Source: an uncultured Nitrospirota bacterium
GTDB taxonomy: Bacteria > Nitrospirota > Nitrospiria > 2-01-FULL-66-17
Reading direction: 5' to 3'
DNA length: 64,000 bases
Assembly: GCA_964570625.1 (NCBI GenBank)
Contig: CAZMYW010000027.1
Coordinates: 285,510-349,509 of the forward strand
The position numbers were made by a program, and so were the translations under genes. How positions within the stretch are numbered: position 1 is the stretch's first letter; the number at the start of each line of letters is the position of its first letter. The notes below the pieces were generated by a model. It was not told the DNA's origin, ran no database searches, and saw only the letters and a program-made list of their open reading frames with translations. This document shows, one piece after another, positions 2,769-63,989 of the stretch.

Positions 2769-2997
2769 CCGACTCCACCCGCGCCCCCGGAGGGCCGATC
2801 CGCAGCCGGCCGATCACCGTCTCGATCACTTCACGGGAGCCTTCCAGTCGCACCTCGACTCGCCCGTCGCGCAGATTTTTGGCGTGGCCGCTCAGCCCCA
2901 GGCGAGTCGCCTCCGCCGCGGCGAAATTCCGGTAGCCGATCCCCTGGACCTGGCCGCTGACGTGAACCGTGGCTTGGTGCACCTTGGTATCGCTCAT
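2713..2997 (-). CDS. acyP: acylphosphatase
   Basis: VHVSGQVQGIGYRNF and GLSGHAKNLRDGRVEV acylphosphatase signatures. Start placed at the second Met (MSDTKV), because the upstream Met would run into tRNA-Pro. Confidence 0.75.
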   Translation of the reverse strand: MSDTKVHQATVHVSGQVQGIGYRNFAAAEATRLGLSGHAKNLRDGRVEVRLEGSREVIETVIGRLRIGPPGARVESVDVRWQAGSSGARGFNVA

Positions 2998-3012
2998 CGC
3001 GTTCCGAACAAA

Positions 3013-3086
3013 TCGGGGTGAGAGGATTTGAACCTCCGACACCCAGCTCCCGAAGCTGGTGCGCTACCAGGCTGCGCCACACCCCG
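3013..3086 (-). tRNA. tRNA-Pro (anticodon CGG)
   Basis: Reverse complement CGGGGTGTGGCGCAGCCTGGTAGCGCACCAGCTTCGGGAGCTGGGTGTCGGAGGTTCAAATCCTCTCACCCCGA folds as a cloverleaf. 7-bp acceptor stem, anticodon loop TTCGGGA, T-arm GGAGG/TTCAAAT/CCTCT. CCA is not encoded. Confidence 0.85.
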
Positions 3087-3166
3087 TTGTTCCCCTGTAA
3101 AAGGCAACTCATCTCGCAGCCTCGGGCCTAAAATTCGGCCCTGCGTTGCGCCAAGCAAGCTCGGTT

Positions 3167-3225
3167 GGAACCTCCGACACCCAGCTCCCGAAGCTGGTGC
3201 GCTACCAGGCTGCGCCACACCCCGT
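3167..3225 (-). pseudogene. truncated tandem copy of tRNA-Pro (5' 59 nt only; T-arm and 3' acceptor strand absent)
   Basis: Direct repeat of 3031-3089 at 3167-3227. The sequence downstream of the repeat (GGAGGTTCCAACCGAGCTTG) cannot form a T-stem or an acceptor stem. Confidence 0.6.
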
Positions 3226-3232
3226 TCCTCTA

Positions 3233-4336
3233 TCAGTGCCATGTTTCCAATCGCAAACGGTGCGCCTCGGCGACCCCAGGATGCACCACCCGGCCGTGGT
3301 AGAGATTCAAGCCGGCACCCAGGGCCGGATCGGCCTTCAAGGCCGGCTCGACGCCGTGTTCAACCAACTTCATGACGTAGGGCAGAGTCACCGCGGTCAA
3401 CGCCTGCGTGGACGTCCTCGGGACCGTACCCGGCAGGTTCGCCACTCCATAGTGAATGACCCCATGCACGATAGCCACCGGGTTGGCCTGCGTCGTTTTC
3501 TTCGCTGTCTCGACGCACCCGCCTTGGTCGATCGACACGTCCACGATCACCGAGCCTTTCCGCATCTGCGCCACGGTTTGCGCGGTGACCAGATGGGGGG
3601 TGCGTCCTCCGGAGACCAACACCGCGCCGACCACCAGGTCCGCTTGCACCACCGTCCCGTGAATCGTCTCCGGACTCGCGATCAAGGTCGTGATCCGGCC
3701 GCCGAACAGATCGTCCACCGCCCGCAGCCGGTTGGGATCCTGTTCGAGCACCGTGACCCGCGCGCCCATCCCGACCGCCATCTTGGCCGCGCTGGTTCCG
3801 ACAATGCCACCCCCGAGGATCGTGACCCGTCCCCGCTCCACGCCAGGAATGCCGGACAACAAGACGCCGCTACCGCCGTTGGTCCGTTGGAGATACGAGG
3901 CCCCGATCTGCACCGCCAGGCGACCGGCGATATCGCTCATCGGCCGCAGCAGCGGCCGCACGCCGTCCGCCTGCGTCACCGTCTCGTACGCGATGCCCAC
4001 GATTCCGGCCGCCAGCAACGCCTCGGTCAGGCCGCGATCCGCGGCCAAGTGCAAGAACGTAAAAAGCGTCTGGCCCTTCTGGATCCACGGATACTCTTTG
4101 GGAAGGGGCTCCTTGACCTTCACGATCAGGTCGCCCATCTTGTACACCGCTTCCGTGGAGGCGACCAGCATGGCTCCCGCCTCCTCGTAGGCGCGATCGG
4201 AGAACCCGCTGCCCTCCCCCGCGCCGCGTTCCACGAACACTTGCGCTCCGAGATGGGCGATCGCACGCACCCCTGCGGGGGTCATCCCGACCCGGTACTC
4301 GTGCTCCATAATCTCGCGCGGAACGCCGACTTTCAT
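3233..4336 (-). CDS. ald: alanine dehydrogenase
   Basis: MKVGVPREIMEHEYRVGMTPAGV N-terminus, an NAD-binding GGGIVGTSAAKMAVGMGARVTVLE fold and length 367 aa. Confidence 0.9.
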   Translation of the reverse strand: MKVGVPREIMEHEYRVGMTPAGVRAIAHLGAQVFVERGAGEGSGFSDRAYEEAGAMLVASTEAVYKMGDLIVKVKEPLPKEYPWIQKGQTLFTFLHLAADRGLTEALLAAGIVGIAYETVTQADGVRPLLRPMSDIAGRLAVQIGASYLQRTNGGSGVLLSGIPGVERGRVTILGGGIVGTSAAKMAVGMGARVTVLEQDPNRLRAVDDLFGGRITTLIASPETIHGTVVQADLVVGAVLVSGGRTPHLVTAQTVAQMRKGSVIVDVSIDQGGCVETAKKTTQANPVAIVHGVIHYGVANLPGTVPRTSTQALTAVTLPYVMKLVEHGVEPALKADPALGAGLNLYHGRVVHPGVAEAHRLRLETWH

Positions 4337-6586: not shown

Positions 6587-7702
6587 TTGGAAGACGCCTT
6601 CAGACACCCGATGACCAACCACACACCCAGTCCCGTCCCCCATTTCATCACGGTGGGATGGCAGGACGGCTGCGTGCGCCTCCTGGACCAGCGCCGCCTG
6701 CCGGAAGAAGTGCGTTACCTCGACTGCACCGACTATCGCGAAGTCGCGGAGGCCATCAGAACCCTGGCGGTCCGCGGGGCGCCAGCCATCGGGATCGCTG
6801 CGGCTATGGGTCTTGCCCTTGGAGCCACGACATTGGTCCCGGCATCGTCCGATGAGTTCCAGAGCGGGCTCTCAAAGATCGCCGACGACCTGGCCTCGAC
6901 CCGCCCGACGGCGGTCAATTTGTTTTGGGCATTGGATCGGATGAAGCGCGTCGCCGCGCAGCATCAACACCTTGAGCGCGGAGCCCTGGTTCGGCGTCTC
7001 ATCCAGGAATCTCAAGTGATACTTGAAGAAGACGTGGCGATGAATCGCGCCATGGGAGCGATCGGCGCCACGTTCATTCACGATGGGAACACGATCCTCA
7101 CCCACTGCAACGCCGGCGCGTTGGCGACCGGCGGGTACGGTACGGCCCTCGGGGTGATTCGGGCCGCGTGGGGAAGCGGGAAGCGTATCCGGGTCGTCGC
7201 CGACGAGACGCGGCCGGTGCTCCAAGGTGCGCGCCTCACGGCATGGGAACTGATGCAAGACAGTATTCCGGTCACCCTGATCACCGACAACATGGCAGGC
7301 GCTCTCATGCGGCAGGGCCGCATCCAAGCGTGTATCGTAGGCGCGGACCGGATCGCGGCCAACGGCGACGTGGCGAACAAGATCGGCACCTACAGCGTCG
7401 CGGTGCTCGCTCGCCATCACGGTCTTCCGTTTTATGTGGCTGCGCCGACCTCCACCCTCGACCTCTCGCTACGCTCCGGCGCCGACATTCCCATCGAATC
7501 CCGCAATTCTCGCGAAGTCACACACGTCCACGGGGGGACCACCGTCGCGCCGGACGGTGTGGAGGTGGACAACCCCGCGTTCGACGTCACGCCCGCAGAA
7601 CTCATCACCGCCATCATCACGGAAAAAGGCGCCTTCCGGCCGGCCGACATCCATCGCCTCAATGGCGACGGCGCATCGTTGGCCCCACACCGTCTCGCGT
7701 AA
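6587..7702 (+). CDS. mtnA: S-methyl-5-thioribose-1-phosphate isomerase (eIF-2B alpha/beta/delta family)
   Basis: [32 protein letters not shown] and [21 protein letters not shown] motifs typical of MtnA. Confidence 0.85.
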
Positions 7703-7754
7703 CCCCCGACCCCCGCCTGACGATCCTCCCGCCCGCGCGGTCGGGGTAGCGCGA

Positions 7755-8123
7755 TTACTCCACCGCCTTCACGTCGGTGACGAAATATTCCGTTTCGCCG
7801 AAACAGGTCGTCGGCAAACCCTTGTGTTGTTCGTAGTGAAGCGAGACTCGTTTCCCCATCAATTGATTGATCCGTTCCACGACCGCGTCGTCTCGCACGG
7901 TAAACAGGAATTTCTCGGGCGACGTGCCAGGCATGGACACCATGGACAGTTCCCCCTCCGATGTTTTGCAGATCCACCCCTTCGTGGACAGTTTCTGGAC
8001 GTAACCGGCTCGTTCACCGGAGGAGTAGCTCCACGTCAGCGCCAACCACACGTACAGAACACCGACTAAAATCGCCGCACCGACCAGCCCGCCGATCCAC
8101 CGCATCACGGTTGTCCTATTCAC
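7755..8123 (-). CDS. hypothetical membrane-anchored protein (single N-terminal TM)
   Basis: 122-aa ORF with a hydrophobic N-terminal helix and balanced composition. No family was recognised. Confidence 0.45.
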   Translation of the reverse strand: MNRTTVMRWIGGLVGAAILVGVLYVWLALTWSYSSGERAGYVQKLSTKGWICKTSEGELSMVSMPGTSPEKFLFTVRDDAVVERINQLMGKRVSLHYEQHKGLPTTCFGETEYFVTDVKAVE

Positions 8124-8173: not shown

Positions 8174-9442
8174 TCACTTGACGCCGGAAATCGTGACGAC
8201 CACCCGGCGATTCTTCTTCCTCCCCTCCGGCGTCTTGTTGTCCGCAATCGGATTCGACGGGCCATACCCTTTGGCCGTCAACCGCGATGCGTCCACACCG
8301 AGGTCGATTAATGCTTGCCGCACCGCATCAGCCCGCCGTTGGGACAGGCCCACGTTGTTCTGTACGGACCCAACGTTATCGGTGTGACCCTCGACCTCGC
8401 CCGTAGTCTTCGGCGTGGTTTTCATGAACTCCGCCACGCGCAGGATCTCGCTCTGATACTGCGGCTTGATCACGGCCTTGTTCGTGTCGAACTCGATCGC
8501 CAACTCGATGCTCACCTTCTCTTCCGCCGGCGGTTGCGGAGGCGGACACCCGGTCGTATCCACGCGCTCGCCGCGAGGGGTGTCCGGACAACGGTCAGCT
8601 GCATCTGGCACCCCGTCCCCGTCGGCGTCGGTCGGACAGCCTTGTGGGTCGACCGGCATTCCCTCGGGCGTTCCCGGACACCGATCGTGCATATCCAACA
8701 CCCCATCGCCGTCGGAATCCGCCGGTGGCGGCGGAACCGGCGCAGGAGGAGGAGATGAGGATGGTGGTGGTGCTTGCGGCGGAGGAGGCGGCGCGGCGGC
8801 AGCCATCGGCGAGGGTTGCGCGCCGCCCCACGAGAACACGAGGCCCAGCGTGTACTCCAAATTGTTGTAGGTCGGCGAATTGTGCTGGTCCATGATGTGG
8901 CGGACGTCCGCCCGCAATCCGATCGTTCGATTCAGCGCCCATTTCGCACCCACCCCGTAGTCCACGAGGAAGTCCTCGTCGGCTGCCCCACCAGAATCGG
9001 GATCGAGCTTGATGACACCGAATCCGGCCGCAAGGTAGGGGACGACTCGGGCTTCGGGCATCAGATGCCAGAGCCCTTCGATTCGGTACAGATATCCTTC
9101 CACGTCGACCGGAGCCACCTTCGATTCCGTTCGCAGATAATCGAATGCTCCTTCCAGGGCAAATCGCGACGTCCAGTTAAAGCCCAATCGCAGCCCATAT
9201 ACCGGCTTATGTTTGAGTTCCTGATCCGACTCGAACACGTAGCCCCCGATCACGGGGCTGATCGACCATTCTCCGGCCCGCGTCTCGGCCCAAGCCGGGG
9301 ACACCGCCAACCACACCGACGCTATCGCAATGCTCAACCCGCGAAATGCATTCATCGCCATCCTCCCTGATCCGTTAATGACTGTGTCCGCTGCCTGGCC
9401 GGCAGCCCGAGTCATCGCCTGACCCCAAACGGCCGGCGTCAA
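8174..9442 (-). CDS. OmpA-family outer-membrane protein with Pro-rich linker and thrombospondin type-3 (DxDxDGxxD) Ca-binding repeats
   Basis: Signal peptide and an N-terminal beta-barrel, followed by a PPPPQAPPPSSSPPPAPVPPPP linker. Two TSP3 repeats (DSDGDGVLDMHDRCP, DADGDGVPDAADRCP) precede a C-terminal OmpA peptidoglycan-binding domain (NQALSQRRADAVRQALIDLG, RRVVVTI). Confidence 0.85.
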   Translation of the reverse strand: MTPAVWGQAMTRAAGQAADTVINGSGRMAMNAFRGLSIAIASVWLAVSPAWAETRAGEWSISPVIGGYVFESDQELKHKPVYGLRLGFNWTSRFALEGAFDYLRTESKVAPVDVEGYLYRIEGLWHLMPEARVVPYLAAGFGVIKLDPDSGGAADEDFLVDYGVGAKWALNRTIGLRADVRHIMDQHNSPTYNNLEYTLGLVFSWGGAQPSPMAAAAPPPPPQAPPPSSSPPPAPVPPPPADSDGDGVLDMHDRCPGTPEGMPVDPQGCPTDADGDGVPDAADRCPDTPRGERVDTTGCPPPQPPAEEKVSIELAIEFDTNKAVIKPQYQSEILRVAEFMKTTPKTTGEVEGHTDNVGSVQNNVGLSQRRADAVRQALIDLGVDASRLTAKGYGPSNPIADNKTPEGRKKNRRVVVTISGVK

Positions 9443-9457
9443 CCCGTCGCGTCCGTC

Positions 9458-9901
9458 TCAGGCCGCCCTCACCTCGGACGTACAGTGCGGGCAGCGCGTC
9501 GCTTTGATCGGGATGGTAGAGATGCAGTGTGGACAGGTCTTCGTCGTCGGAACCGCTGGCGCCGACACGGGTTCGCGCTTCAGCCGATTGACCTGTTTGA
9601 CCAGCACAAAGATCACGGCGGCGACAATGACGAAGTCCACCACCGTGTTGAGGAACAGCCCGTAGTTGACTGTGGCTGCGCCGGCCGCTTTAGCCGCCTC
9701 CACCGATGGATACGCGGTGTCGGAGAGATTCAGAAATAGGTTCGAAAAATTCACGCTACCCAACGCCAACCCGATCGGCGGCATCAACACGTCGCTCACC
9801 AACGACGACACGATCTTCCCAAACGCCGCGCCGATGATGATCCCCACCGCCATGTCGAGCACATTGCCGCGCATCACGAATTCTTTGAATTCTTTTAGCA
9901 T
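9458..9901 (-). CDS. mscL: large-conductance mechanosensitive channel MscL with C-terminal CxxC..CxxC zinc-ribbon extension
   Basis: [44 protein letters not shown] is near-identical to the E. coli MscL N-terminus. The start was trimmed to this Met. The C-terminus reads [20 protein letters not shown]. Confidence 0.85.
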
Positions 9902-10127
9902 GGGTCCCTCCCTCATCGTTGAGTTGATTCCCAGACGAACGGTCCCCGTCTGTGCGAGCATCCCGGAGTGGCAATAGCCCAGAGCGACCCGGATTGTACG
10001 AAGAAAGGATCGACATTCCAACCCCCCATTGAAGAGCGCCGACTCCAACGTTTCGGGCGTGACCAGGGGGAGAACCGGCGATGGCGTCAGGCAGGTGTTG
10101 CGGGGTGGCGGTCGGGCCGCGGCGCGT

Positions 10128-10520
10128 TCAGAACATCCGTTCGGTGAGGATTAGGAACCAGATGACTCCTGCGTTGAGCAGGGCCACCAACACGACGGCG
10201 GAGCCCACGTCCTTCGCTTTCCCGGAAAGTTCATGGCGGTCGGGCCCGACGCGGTCCACGACCGCCTCGATTCCGGAGTTGATCAACTCGGCCATGATCA
10301 CGAGGGCGAGACTGCCGATCAGGAGAGCGCGCTCCACGCCGTTACTGCCCACCCATACTGCCAGCGGCGCAAGCACCACACACAGAACCACGTCAGCGCG
10401 AAACGCCCACTCGCTGCGCCAGGCCGCCTTCAACCCATCCAGCGAAAATCCAAGGGCTCGGATCAGCCGCCTGACCGGGCCGGTCGGTTGGGGTTTATAC
10501 CCGATCCGTGGACGCTCGAC
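10128..10520 (-). CDS. dgkA: diacylglycerol kinase
   Basis: [13 protein letters not shown] and [45 protein letters not shown] match DgkA. The start is uncertain: there is no in-frame ATG and a GTG near 10520 or 10475 is possible. The ORF track runs to 10652. Confidence 0.75.
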
Positions 10521-60211: not shown

Positions 60212-60672
60212 GGCTCCTCCCGCGTCCTTCATCATGCCTCCCGTTGTTGGATGGAAAACAGAAAAGATCAATTCGACAAAAACAGCGATGAAGGATAGCC
60301 GAGGGCGGACCTTCTGTAAAATCGATGCCGCGTTCAACGAGTTCGAAACATGATGAAACAGTGAGCAAGAGATGCCTTGACCTCGCGGTTTCTCGCGTGC
60401 TATCACCTTACTGGTGAGACGCGGACGCGAAACGATCGCGGGACGGACTTCACGTTTTCGAAAGGACACGATCTCAGACACACAGTTGTAAACACCTTCC
60501 ATCATGGCAAACTGCCGGCGACGGCAGGACGCAAAGCACCGGATCTTCCGAGACGCTGAAGACAGCCGGGCCGCCGAGGTGGCAATAATCAAACCAGTGA
60601 TTATTGGCATGTCGGGAGCCCGGCTTTTCTATTCCGGCTCCCGCGGTTGGCGTCACGGGGAACAGTCTCGCG

Positions 60673-61455
60673 ATGTACGACTGCTCGGAGATCAACAAAC
60701 TCCTGCATCCCTCCCTGGATCGGGAGCTGGACATCAAAGAGTCCCTCCGCGTCCAGACCCACCTCAAAGACTGCGCCTCGTGTCGCGAACGGCTCCTGGA
60801 CGATCAAGAATTCCTGGCATACCTCCCGTCGCTCCTGACGCCGAACCCCGCGCCGGACACCGTGCGTCAAGCCGTCACCGATGCGCTATCGCGTGAGGCT
60901 CATCGGCTCGACCAGAGCAGGCTCCGGTGGCGCGCGCTCGCCTCACCCAGCATGCTCGCGGCGGTTACGGTGCTTCTGGCCCTGTTCTACGTCATCCCCC
61001 ACCCGCAGATCCCGACATTGGTGAAGATCGCCCTGGCCGAACATCGGCTCTACATGAAAGACCCTGCGCTCCTGCAAATCAAGAACGACGACGTGCGAAC
61101 CGTGACGCACGCGCTCCAACAGCGACTACCCTTCCCTCTCCACGTCCCGCCAAAAACCACGGCCGACGTCCGACTGGTCGGCGCCGACGTGATGCCCCAC
61201 CCGATCCCCTCCGCGGTGCTTGCGTACCAGGTGAACGACTCACCCGTCTCGCTGCTCGTCACCACCCCGCGAAATATCTCGTTCTCCAACGCCGCGACCC
61301 GGACCTTCAAAAACACGCTCTTTCACTCCGCCTTCCTCGATGGCCTCCACGTGCTGCAGTGGTCGGACCACCGCCACACCTACGTCCTGGTGGCCTGCCG
61401 CGACACACCAGTCGACTCCCTCCCCTTCGCCGTGCTCACGGCCGATGGCTCCTAA
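60673..61455 (+). CDS. zinc-finger anti-sigma factor (ZAS, HxxxCxxC) with TM helix and periplasmic C-terminal domain
   Basis: MYDCSEINKLLH..LRVQTHLKDCASCRERL motif, then a TM helix (MLAAVTVLLALFYVI). No ECF sigma gene is adjacent. Confidence 0.6.
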   Translation: MYDCSEINKLLHPSLDRELDIKESLRVQTHLKDCASCRERLLDDQEFLAYLPSLLTPNPAPDTVRQAVTDALSREAHRLDQSRLRWRALASPSMLAAVTVLLALFYVIPHPQIPTLVKIALAEHRLYMKDPALLQIKNDDVRTVTHALQQRLPFPLHVPPKTTADVRLVGADVMPHPIPSAVLAYQVNDSPVSLLVTTPRNISFSNAATRTFKNTLFHSAFLDGLHVLQWSDHRHTYVLVACRDTPVDSLPFAVLTADGS

Positions 61456-61728
61456 CCCACTCCCCTTAAGAATCGGGAAATTGACACGTAGCACCAATCC
61501 GGGATAGAACAGCCCCGTCCACTAGGGCCTCGTCCTCAACCGCAGGGTCAAAAACCTTGTCATCTCCTGCGTCCACGCGTGCGGTTTTAGAGCATGCTGG
61601 AAGGGTGAGAAGAGCGGGGTCAAAAACAAAAGAAAATTAAACAAAAAGAGAGAGAAATTCAGGACCTTTCGCGAAGTCTAGCGCTCTTTCAGTCAGACCT
61701 CCAAGATTGTTTCATTTGTCCGACCTGC

Positions 61729-62751
61729 TTGAAATCCTATCCGATCATAAAACAGGATGAGATTAGTGAGGCGCATATTTTGCCCAAAGCCTCTGGCGGC
61801 ACGTTGAAGACCTATCTCTGTGTAAAGTGTAACAGTACGTTTGGGAGTCGGCAGGACAAATGGTTTGGAGAATACCTCGGGGTGATAAAGGACAAGGATC
61901 GCTCTATTTTTGGATGCGAAACAAAAAAAGGTTACTTTGAAATTGAGGGTATTCGTGTAGGTGGTAAATTCGAGTTTACGCTCCAAGATGGATTCCAGTT
62001 GTTTATCTGGCAGGATAAGACATCTCCTGCGGCGCTGAAGAAACTACAAGAGCTTCGAAACAATGGAGGTCTAAGCACATACAACGTCAGCATCCCGATT
62101 CCACTTCTAGAGGAGGAAAACCAGAGGCTTTCGGGGATCGGTTTTCTTACCGCGGCTTACTTACTGTGGTTTAAAGAATTTGGATACTCATGGGCTCTGC
62201 AAAAACACCTCGAACCAATAAGGCAGCAGATCCATAAACCGACAGAATCAATTTTGCCTGCAAAGTTTTTGGCTACTACGAATAGCGTGTTTGACAGTCC
62301 GTGGATTGGAATCGCCTTTCTAGGCGGCGAAGTGGCTCTCGCGGCTGGTCTCGCGAATCATGTTGTCCTTTTGCCTCCAGCGGACAGAGTTGATTTCTAT
62401 CATCGAATCTCTCGAATCGACACAGAAAACATCAAGTTGAGTAACCTCCGGACATTTAGTTTTTATAAAAATCACTCCTTCGATGGCCCATTGGGAATAC
62501 TGTTTGGGGATTGCCTTGCCTTGGCCCCTGATGCGCTGCGGGTTGGCGGAAATCCAAATGTTGCTGTGCTGTTTCTCCCGCCTGAAGGAGACTCGCCTCA
62601 ACTCCTGTACCCAGTTCCTGCAAACACCTCAATTTCTATTCCCCCAGACGCTATTAGGATAAGGTCGAGAAGAGGGCGCTTAGCGCCACTGGCTACGTTG
62701 GGCGAAGGCGGGCCAGCAGCTGTAGTTCCGGAGTCCGGAAGCCCCGCGTGA
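61729..62751 (+). CDS. HNH-motif nuclease-like protein with an unknown 280-aa C-terminal domain; N-terminus probably disrupted
   Basis: EAHILPKASGG..TYLCVKCNSTFG HNH core. The matching upstream CxxC (CFICPTC, 61708-61728) is in frame but precedes the only start codon in the track (TTG at 61729). An in-frame ATG at 61594 is followed by TGA at 61606. The locus is AT-richer than the surrounding DNA. Confidence 0.5.
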   Translation: MKSYPIIKQDEISEAHILPKASGGTLKTYLCVKCNSTFGSRQDKWFGEYLGVIKDKDRSIFGCETKKGYFEIEGIRVGGKFEFTLQDGFQLFIWQDKTSPAALKKLQELRNNGGLSTYNVSIPIPLLEEENQRLSGIGFLTAAYLLWFKEFGYSWALQKHLEPIRQQIHKPTESILPAKFLATTNSVFDSPWIGIAFLGGEVALAAGLANHVVLLPPADRVDFYHRISRIDTENIKLSNLRTFSFYKNHSFDGPLGILFGDCLALAPDALRVGGNPNVAVLFLPPEGDSPQLLYPVPANTSISIPPDAIRIRSRRGRLAPLATLGEGGPAAVVPESGSPA

Positions 62752-62882
62752 CGCTTCGCAAAGTGATCGATGGCTTATCGCTGTGATCGGAGGGATATCC
62801 AGAACCAGTTGATTCTGACCCCTCAAGCTGAATCCAGCGAGACCCGCATTGAGGGCCGCGTCGTCCCTTCACAGGGGGAACT

Positions 62883-63380
62883 ATGAAGGCAATGGCTTCT
62901 TTCGCTTTGCTGCTACTGCTAACGAGCTGTGCCGGGCTTGAGCCGGTGCCGGACTCAGAGCGCACGTTCGAGGGTGTCTTTGAAGCTCCAGGATTCACTA
63001 AGGATCAGATATTCACGGCGACACGAATCTGGATCGCAGAGAATTTCAGATCAGCAAAGGCAGTAGTCGAATACGAGAATAAAGAGGAGGGTACGCTAAT
63101 CGGAAACGGAGTCATTTCATACCCTTGTAACGGCATTGACTGCATCGCGAAGGGGAATTGGAAAGTACCATTCACGATGCGGGTCGACATGAAGGATCAA
63201 AAGTTTCGTCTAACGTTCTCAAATCTGCGGCTCACGTGGCCGCCCTCGTCCAACTATCCGGCCGCTGACGGTCCGATGGTTCAGCGCGGCCAGTTGGAAG
63301 CGGTAAGACCCAAGCTGTTGGCATTCGGCCCTGCCATCCTAGATTCCATATCGAGCAACAGAAAGGCGAGCGACTTTTGA
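62883..63380 (+). CDS. hypothetical lipoprotein
   Basis: Lipobox LLTSC, a GGAACT-type RBS and AT-richer codon usage like the upstream gene. Confidence 0.5.
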   Translation: MKAMASFALLLLLTSCAGLEPVPDSERTFEGVFEAPGFTKDQIFTATRIWIAENFRSAKAVVEYENKEEGTLIGNGVISYPCNGIDCIAKGNWKVPFTMRVDMKDQKFRLTFSNLRLTWPPSSNYPAADGPMVQRGQLEAVRPKLLAFGPAILDSISSNRKASDF

Positions 63381-63539
63381 AATCCAACAAGTCCAATACA
63401 GCCGACTCGGGGTCAGACTTGACTTGTTGACTTCTTGAGAGGTCTTCAAGTTTTGGAACGGATCTCTCGCGAAGAACCCACTCTTTTAACGCAATAACGC
63501 ACTCAGAAACTTCCCGAAGCGGGTGCGTAGTTGCTTGGG

Positions 63540-63989
63540 CTAGAACTCGTACGCGGCGATCGTTTTCACCAGCAGGTCGTCGCTGGCTTGGGTGAGGCCC
63601 ACGCCTATGCCGAAATCCACGTCCACTGGGCCGATCGGGAATTTGACGGCTGGGACGAGGTAGTGGATCTGCGCGTCCCACGGCTTCCAGTCGCTGAACT
63701 CGCCTAGCGCTCCGTAGCCTTCGAGGCCCAGGCGGACCTTGCCCATCGGCGCGTATACCCCCACCGCGTATTCGAACTCCACGCCCTCGTCCACATCAGG
63801 AGCATCGAGCGCTTTTTCGAAGATCGGGTTGAGCCGCACAATTACGGGCGCGAAGGTTTTCTCGAAGATCAGACGGGTTTCGAGTTTCTCGGAGCGGCCG
63901 TAGGCGGTGTTGGGAATGTAGTATTCGAAGTACAGCGCGGTGTCGAAGAGCCGCTCGCCCGCTTCAAAAAACCGGTAGCGCGACACCAC
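63540..63989 (-). CDS. outer-membrane beta-barrel protein (C-terminal ..AAYEF), possibly partial at window edge
   Basis: Alternating amphipathic strands with a terminal aromatic residue. The ORF begins 11 nt from the window end, so the true start may lie beyond the window. Confidence 0.45.
   Translation of the reverse strand: MVSRYRFFEAGERLFDTALYFEYYIPNTAYGRSEKLETRLIFEKTFAPVIVRLNPIFEKALDAPDVDEGVEFEYAVGVYAPMGKVRLGLEGYGALGEFSDWKPWDAQIHYLVPAVKFPIGPVDVDFGIGVGLTQASDDLLVKTIAAYEF

Follow-up and report, generated by a model that had tools for sequence, protein, structure and literature searches.

The 64,000-nucleotide (nt) stretch analysed here (the window; contig CAZMYW010000027.1 of assembly GCA_964570625.1, positions 285,510-349,509, forward strand) comes from an uncultured Nitrospirota bacterium and carries, near its 3′ end, a gene that alignment with its homologues indicates to be a new member, altered in its start codon, of an uncharacterised HNH_5 nuclease family associated with defence islands. 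In the explanation that we favour, and hold to be rather probable as a whole, an acquired islet carries an intact coding sequence with an ATT in the place of its start codon, the product is a defence nuclease, and the lipoprotein gene beside it is unrelated cargo. The original prediction, made from the letters of the DNA, had described an islet with an HNH nuclease gene whose N-terminus is interrupted by an in-frame stop, next to a lipoprotein gene. The islet, the HNH gene, its missing start and the lipoprotein were all recovered in our analysis, but the stop does not interrupt the gene. A specialist would find no surprise here; the value of the locus lies in a candidate gene for defence, in a correction to the annotation and in a hotspot whose junction is oddly precise.

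An ATT codon at the start position of the HNH gene

The features of the gene and its start region are as follows.

61636..62751, + strand: HNH_5 plus C-terminal-domain gene, 371 amino acids (aa), ATT at the start position; placed by homologue alignment, 80% aa identity to the relative P0002
61636..61638, + strand: ATT at the family start-codon position; contig L001 has ATG there, in an otherwise identical 36-nt block
61594..61608, + strand: ATG CTG GAA GGG TGA mini-frame, within a non-coding leader and outside the gene; the ATG is missing there in the related loci L028 and L111
61717..61869, + strand: HNH_5 (His-Me finger) nuclease domain, with C28 and C31 (CPTC), H47 (61774-61776), C62, C65, N66, Q73 and D74
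61903..62700, + strand: C-terminal domain, ~266 aa, with an invariant GFLTAAYLLWF..GYSW..Q..L..R helix region

The HNH-motif frame is open from 61609 to 62751, and its first canonical start is the TTG at 61729; no ATG, GTG or TTG occurs in frame between the TGA at 61606 and the CPTC motif. The match to the Pfam model HNH_5 (PF14279; 35.7 bits against a cut-off of 27.5, E 8.5e-9, residues 28-78) confirms the HNH core that had been proposed, and as it starts at CPTC (61717), 5′ of TTG 61729, half of the zinc site does lie upstream of the annotated start. The deposited protein P0001 (323 aa) begins at TTG 61780 and thus lacks C28, C31 and the catalytic His, H47. A product from TTG 61729 would lose C28 and C31, and one from ATT 61636 includes C28, C31, H47, C62, C65 and N66. 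The tetranucleotide GAGG lies ~9 nt 5′ of TTG 61780 and probably accounts for the gene callers' choice of that codon, which, if used, would give a complete C-terminal domain and no catalytic His.

The translated frame retrieves 115 relatives of ~320-395 aa, almost all with HNH_5, and those that were aligned begin M-K/x, ~30 residues before CPxC. The DNA of the closest relative, P0002 on Logan contig L001, reads GGGGTCAAAAACAAAAGAAAATGAAACAAAAAGAGA where the window reads GGGGTCAAAAACAAAAGAAAATTAAACAAAAAGAGA; the L001 ATG corresponds to the ATT at 61636-61638, which is the sole difference within the 36-nt block, and about 21-22 nt directly 5′ of the start are identical. Homology between the window and L001 runs from 61615 to ~62693-62700, and both the ATG at 61594 and the TGA at 61606 fall outside it. 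We also surveyed 64 distinct family loci with recovered 5′ ends, drawn from collections of genomes and metagenomes. In nearly all of them a canonical start, ATG or in a few cases GTG or TTG, stands 27-34 codons 5′ of CPxC, and the window is the only one without a canonical start in the open frame 5′ of CxxC.

The ATG at 61594 and the TGA at 61606 are present in the sequence as originally described. Because the homologue N-termini align to 61636, so that the family Met1 maps 27 nt past the TGA, the claim that this stop interrupts the N-terminus is wrong; judged from the homologues, the real anomaly is a start codon reading ATT. Translation from ATG 61594, with readthrough or recoding of the TGA, or with the TGA as a sequencing error in a longer N-terminus, had also been suggested, and the frame is indeed open from 61609 and in phase with that ATG. 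However, the 42 nt 5′ of 61636 are not homologous to any family N-terminus, homology to the closest relative begins only at 61615, the ATG/TGA segment is part of a leader common to L028 and L111, which lack the ATG, and the TGA is reproduced in an independent assembly. This alternative is already contradicted, and we give it almost no credence: on homologue alignment together with leader conservation, we reject both readthrough and a sequencing error at TGA 61606. The independent assembly (Logan contig L002, run SRR9952630) is identical to the window over 4,769 bp, ATT and TGA included, which makes an assembler artefact behind either codon unlikely. For annotation, the deposited model, without the catalytic His and half of the zinc site, should give way to one that has the non-canonical ATT at 61636 as its start; failing that, the gene should carry a flag for a missing start.

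An intact coding sequence behind the altered start

Relative to L001 the initiation codon has been lost (ATG to ATT), but within the open frame 61609-62751 there is no internal stop, no frameshift and no decay at conserved positions. The window protein and P0002 are collinear over their full length and ungapped over 354 aa, with a ratio of non-synonymous to synonymous substitution (dN/dS) of 0.12 at a synonymous divergence (dS) of 0.88 between the window gene and its L001 homologue. At the 54 alignment columns with at least 80% agreement among the other relatives (P0002 excluded), the window protein has no deviations and P0002 has one; lineage-specific changes, 23 in the window protein and 14 in P0002, do not differ significantly. 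Since a dS of ~0.9 would leave neutral flanks unalignable, the 22 identical nt 5′ of the start point to a constrained, A-rich initiation region without a Shine-Dalgarno sequence.

Two readings of the ATT are live. Either the start was lost very recently and the protein would no longer be made, the gene being a very recent start-codon pseudogene, or the codon is a weak AUU start from which the protein would be made at roughly 1% of the normal level. In Escherichia coli, initiation at AUU reaches 1-2% (range 0.02-3%) of that at AUG, and AUU starts have been confirmed for infC and pcnB alone (bioRxiv 10.1101/063800). The likeness of the window gene to these two is that AUU is the only candidate initiation codon at its homologous start position. 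In infC, however, the AUU is conserved and autoregulatory, whereas in the window it is a one-off among homologues, which makes it at least as likely to be a lesion.

We regard it as possible, yet rather doubtful, that the ATT is a selected, functional weak start that holds a potentially self-toxic nuclease at a very low constitutive level, as in infC and pcnB, and that the gene is active. AUU is a documented bacterial start, the 371-codon open reading frame (ORF) is intact with every invariant residue kept and no deviations at conserved columns, and the identity of the 22 nt 5′ of the start to L001 despite a dS of 0.88 suggests that the initiation region is still constrained. On the other hand, an intact ORF is equally expected soon after start-codon loss, and the ATT is unique among the 64 surveyed loci. 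Disrupted family copies, split into two ORFs, are also not rare (L013, L030/L031, L047 and L108), and because such copies occur we lean, not strongly, to recent loss of the start. The suggestion that the gene was acquired and then inactivated thus survives in part, with inactivation as one of the two live readings and with the ATT, not the stop, as the lesion. In either case the allele may serve as a natural experiment in the silencing or throttling of a potentially self-toxic nuclease gene after transfer.

A nuclease domain joined to a domain found nowhere else

All 103 aligned relatives also match PF14279. The window protein keeps every invariant residue of the nuclease domain (C28, C31, H47, C62, C65, N66, Q73 and D74) and of the C-terminal domain (T172, Y175, L176, F179, G183, Y184, S185, W186, Q189 and R196). 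An AlphaFold model built with 103 sequences is confident except for the last 16 residues (predicted local distance difference test score 90.7, predicted template modelling score 0.90). In this predicted structure the N-terminal domain has the beta-beta-alpha-metal fold and matches the HNH domain of Cas9, Hpy99I and McrA.

The C-terminal ~270 aa, which the original prediction had left unassigned, match no Pfam model and no solved structure, and a profile search of Protein Data Bank (PDB) sequences was empty. When the C-terminal domain alone was used as a query against 1.84 billion cluster representatives, 226 clusters were found, and in essentially every one the domain begins between residues 90 and 110 of a 320-390-aa protein. 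By these searches the domain is rare and occurs only behind HNH_5, and domain shuffling is ruled out among the representatives searched. NCBIfam has no model for the protein family.

The His-Me finger classification of Jablonska et al. (2017, PMC5714182) includes a 'group 8' of bacterial HNH_5-only proteins that are uncharacterised, with no viral members reported there. The window protein is likewise bacterial and has a CxxC...H...CxxCN...QD finger with a zinc site. Group 8 is thus a possible counterpart of the family; the window copy differs in its ATT and in a C-terminal 270 aa outside the Pfam models.

Distribution, gene neighbours and the proposed defence role

Relatives of the gene are spread over Nitrospirota, Acidobacteriota/Thermoanaerobaculia, Deltaproteobacteria, Bacteroidota, Alphaproteobacteria and Gammaproteobacteria. 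In 14 of 15 loci, the G+C content (GC) of the gene is 6-28 points below that of both flanks (for example, 0.32 against 0.59 in L010 and 0.49 against 0.70 in L014). No phage, plasmid or virus relatives were found in IMG/VR, INPHARED, PLSDB or BFVD. The L010 gene lies between two GFO_IDH_MocA oxidoreductase genes (765-1835 and 2936-4006, 356 aa each) in host DNA of GC 0.59, an arrangement that looks like insertion between tandem paralogues.

The flanks differ at each family locus. An all-against-all comparison of flanking ORFs at 65 family loci found no conserved neighbour gene and no methyltransferase or other recurrent partner, and the top neighbour 'cluster' consists of 3′ halves of disrupted family genes. 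A restriction or abortive-infection partner conserved with the gene, which had been thought possible, is thus absent, and the gene stands alone. Many immediate neighbours are of defence type: Mrr (L033), HEPN_AbiV (L040), GIY-YIG/RAMA (L045), SIR2 (L050 and L070), an Eco57I/MmeI-type enzyme, that is, a type IIG restriction-modification protein (L062), DUF4238 (L071), TIR (L015 and L024) and HEPN RiboL-PSP (L089). Further neighbours of this type are a ResIII helicase (L008), an AAA_14-DUF4143 protein (L009), and toxin-antitoxin genes, with HepT/MNT, RelB/ParE and PIN (L019 and L024). In L043, a second, unrelated HNH_5 protein (6880-7887, 335 aa, no BLASTP match to the family) lies directly 3′ of the family gene, so that this locus is a tandem pair of different HNH_5 nucleases.

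In Marinobacter, the family member lies in a cassette array, where its stop codon is followed by a 79-nt attC-type repeat (TAACAA...GCGTTA), further copies of which come behind the next ORFs. In line with this, PF14279 figures among the abundant functions of integron cassettes in a published survey (PMC7370490). The repeats around the Marinobacter protein, P0103, are at 8961-9039, 9437-9515, 10120-10198 and 12859-12937 of L017 and at 1464-1542 and 3919-3997 of L019, and identical copies of the protein are encoded in three or more distinct arrays or contexts. Like the endonuclease cassettes of that survey, the window gene is a single-ORF unit with an extremely short 5′ region of its own; unlike them, its islet has no attC-like site or integrase, and its junction, GGGGTCAAAAACAAA, is not an attI or attC core.

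The window gene belongs to a rare, stand-alone, two-domain family in which a zinc-stabilised HNH_5 nuclease precedes a C-terminal domain of ~270 aa and of unassigned fold. We propose that the C-terminal domain would most likely recognise a target or trigger and that the HNH domain would then cut invading DNA. This role for the C-terminal domain is suggested because of the analogy with single-protein enzymes that join a nuclease to a sensor, as in type IV or modification-dependent systems. Among these, the END nucleases combine a phospholipase D (PLD) domain with an inactive EndoIII and act as single modification-dependent proteins (PMC12191111). Like McrA and the END nucleases, the family is stand-alone, has no methyltransferase, fuses the nuclease to a large second domain, occurs in defence islands and spreads horizontally. 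The fold matches of the HNH part include McrA, but the domain order is reversed, HNH coming first in the window protein. No reader domain (SRA, EVE/ASCH/YTH, winged helix or inactive EndoIII) could be recognised in the window protein, whose second domain is not similar to readers of the SRA, EVE, YTH, winged-helix or EndoIII kind. The family thus probably works like the single-protein modification-dependent nucleases, yet we do not file it as type IV because the testable feature of that class, a recognisable reader domain, is absent. A stand-alone defence nuclease with a novel second domain is, on these analogies, the best-supported reading.

Several points weigh against this reading. The 'sensor' role is a guess from architecture, because the C-terminal domain, in sequence and in the model, resembles no known modified-base reader or DNA-binding fold, and the defence role is predicted for the family from sequence, context and model. 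About 12 of 30 immediate neighbours are defence-related, which is a qualitative count without a background rate, and PADLOC-DB 2.0 gave no match (no family at E ≤1). As to the start codon, the T at 61638 is supported at the level of assemblies, and the AUU efficiencies, which come from E. coli, may not be those of the host.

Two other roles were weighed against that of a defence nuclease. A free-standing homing endonuclease, that is, a selfish gene spreading by cuts at empty sites, would fit an HNH nuclease of low GC relative to every host and of patchy distribution over phyla, whose homology between window and L001 is limited to the ORF plus 21 nt. At a dS of 0.88, however, neutral flanks would be unalignable anyway, the gene never lies within an intron, intein or conserved gene, and the different flanks at each locus leave no recurrent target. 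Moreover, it is an ordinary integron cassette in Marinobacter and is missing from the phage, virus and plasmid collections searched. We therefore judge homing to be highly improbable, and of the earlier idea of a small defence or homing element we retain only defence, by neighbour association.

The gene might instead encode a type II restriction endonuclease that is now an orphan, or a toxin left over from a two-gene system that has decayed and lost its partner gene. Type II enzymes with an HNH nuclease are known, the fold matches include Hpy99I, and the islet is small and mosaic. However, no methyltransferase or small immunity gene stands beside the family in the window or in most of the ~65 loci, and purifying selection on a solitary gene in many phyla argues for a protein that works alone. 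This role is very unlikely in our view. A stand-alone defence nuclease is still the role we prefer; the family is a cheap candidate for a defence screen because its nuclease is compact and modelled with confidence, its C-terminal domain is without a relative in Pfam or the PDB, and its members in many phyla lie amid defence genes.

An acquired islet with two independent genes

The gene lies in a variable islet that it shares with one other gene.

61453..63535, unstranded: variable islet, 2,083 bp; extra DNA relative to relatives in which the anti-sigma gene abuts the 260-aa gene
62883..63380, + strand: DUF4468 lipoprotein gene (PF14730), 165 aa, lipobox LTSC; independent cargo

The abrupt drop in composition that had been reported is real. 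In 300-nt windows, GC is 0.44-0.53 over ~61500-63450 and 0.60-0.70 on either side, and no 1.1-kb stretch of the window is poorer in GC than that of the HNH gene (0.465; mean 0.626, standard deviation 0.036). GC at third codon positions is 0.47 in the HNH gene and 0.61 in the lipoprotein gene, compared to 0.78-0.84 in four neighbouring genes. The ends of the islet were set by blastn against L026 and L027, with which similarity ceases at 61452 and returns at 63536. In these two relatives, whose anti-sigma protein is 77% identical, the anti-sigma gene is followed directly by the 260-aa gene and the islet is absent. Because of its base composition, the empty site in L026 and L027 and the other cargo at the same site in L028, L029 and L111, lateral acquisition, as first suggested, holds. 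The islet is thus, as part of the explanation that we think rather probable, horizontally acquired cargo in a strain-variable hotspot between the anti-sigma and 260-aa genes.

Its gene content is limited to the HNH and DUF4468 genes, and it holds no methyltransferase, integron integrase or recombinase. No attC-like repeat or palindrome with R″/R′ cores was found in 62752-62882 or 63381-63535 by a crude scan that was blank in every locus, the Marinobacter arrays included. A 20-nt inverted repeat (62803-62822 and 63409-63428) was considered as a pair of transposon ends and rejected, as it is not shared by the 93%-identical lipoprotein gene copy in L110.

The second gene is, as predicted, that of a lipoprotein. 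It matches DUF4468 at 69.8 bits (cut-off 22.6), and a signal peptide with a lipobox (LLLLTSC) can be read straight from the sequence: MKAMASFALLLLLTSC. The protein matches the phage family phrog_4002 (E 1.4e-37), and relatives ~40% identical are carried by temperate phages of Acinetobacter and Flavobacterium and by small plasmids. Phage and plasmid accessory genes of this kind often serve superinfection exclusion, and by analogy the window lipoprotein may be linked to that function. The L110 copy, 93% identical in nucleotide sequence, lies in another context and shares only the ORF with ~17 nt upstream and ~13 nt downstream. Because of this copy, and because no DUF4468 gene neighbours the HNH family at any other of the 65 loci, the two genes are independent cargo and not a system, contrary to the idea that they form a unit.

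A hotspot with a common cargo junction

Upstream of the HNH gene, the islet consists of a leader with the following features.

61456..61630, + strand: non-coding leader, common to relatives with different cargo; ends in ...GGGGTCAAAAACAAA
~61483-61511, + strand: promoter-like TTGACA-N17-ATAGAA box within the leader; putative promoter/5′ untranslated region (5′UTR)
61545..61555, + strand: first direct repeat copy, GGGTCAAAAAC; kept in L028 and L111, diverged as GGGCCAAAAAT in L001
61615..61630, + strand: 16-nt junction, GGGGTCAAAAACAAAA; overlap of the leader homology (L028 and L111) and the HNH-gene homology (L001)
61617-61627, + strand: second GGGTCAAAAAC repeat, inside the 16-nt junction

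The leader, ~175 nt long, follows straight after the anti-sigma stop codon in the window, L028 (7781-7967) and L111 (6781-6964), and corresponds to ~450-545 in L001. Its two repeats are 72 nt apart, and L001 keeps the diverged first box 73 nt upstream. Homology to L028 and to L111 stops at the same base, 61630, while that to the HNH-bearing L001 begins at 61615, so that the two overlap by 16 nt.

The cargo at the site differs between relatives. L029 (89%) carries a gene of XRE helix-turn-helix type, a remnant of which is present in L026 and L027; L028 carries genes for a secreted protein, a 135-aa protein, a NYN-domain protein and a 177-aa protein; L111 carries a Schlafen/AlbA_2 protein gene and one for a 466-aa protein; and one further contig carries an MGS-like gene. 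The GC of the cargo is 0.50-0.55 in all of them, compared to 0.64-0.66 in the flanks. The anti-sigma/260-aa site is a hotspot: in three or four lineages, unrelated, co-oriented, low-GC cargos share one and the same starting nucleotide. An element of ~150 nt closes the cargo at its right end in L028 (10723-10878), L111 and L001 and is absent from the window.

At the hotspot we see no recombinase, integrase, transposase or attC site. The leader has no Rfam match, a two-sequence consensus fold was uninformative, and the two-box pattern had no matches in JGI metagenome contigs. The leader may be a promoter/5′UTR for arriving cargo, one end of a non-autonomous element, or a small-RNA gene with an integration site at its end. 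We rejected the idea that GGGGTCA is a recombination motif in general: in the window the 7-mer is as frequent as expected by chance, and the 12-mer is not tied to other family loci. With its precise common cargo junction, the hotspot offers a small, tractable case of integrase-less exchange at a defence hotspot. Two further-reaching readings, that the HNH_5 plus C-terminal family is an undescribed single-protein anti-phage system with a new sensor of nucleic acid or infection, and that the site is a gene-capture platform of a new kind, are put forward tentatively, as possible yet rather doubtful.

A cyclic di-GMP-I riboswitch (RF01051, 52.3 bits) lies at 60496-60578 on the + strand, directly 5′ of the zf-HC2 anti-sigma factor gene. 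Each of the four relatives examined (L026-L029) has the same arrangement, at 57-59 bits. Downstream of the riboswitch, on its strand, come the islet genes, with no terminator-like site found in 61400-63600. Finally, L028 and L111, which both come from GCA_040960215.1, are syntenic here, ~85% identical in nucleotide sequence, and differ in their hotspot cargo; this bin probably mixes two related genomes.

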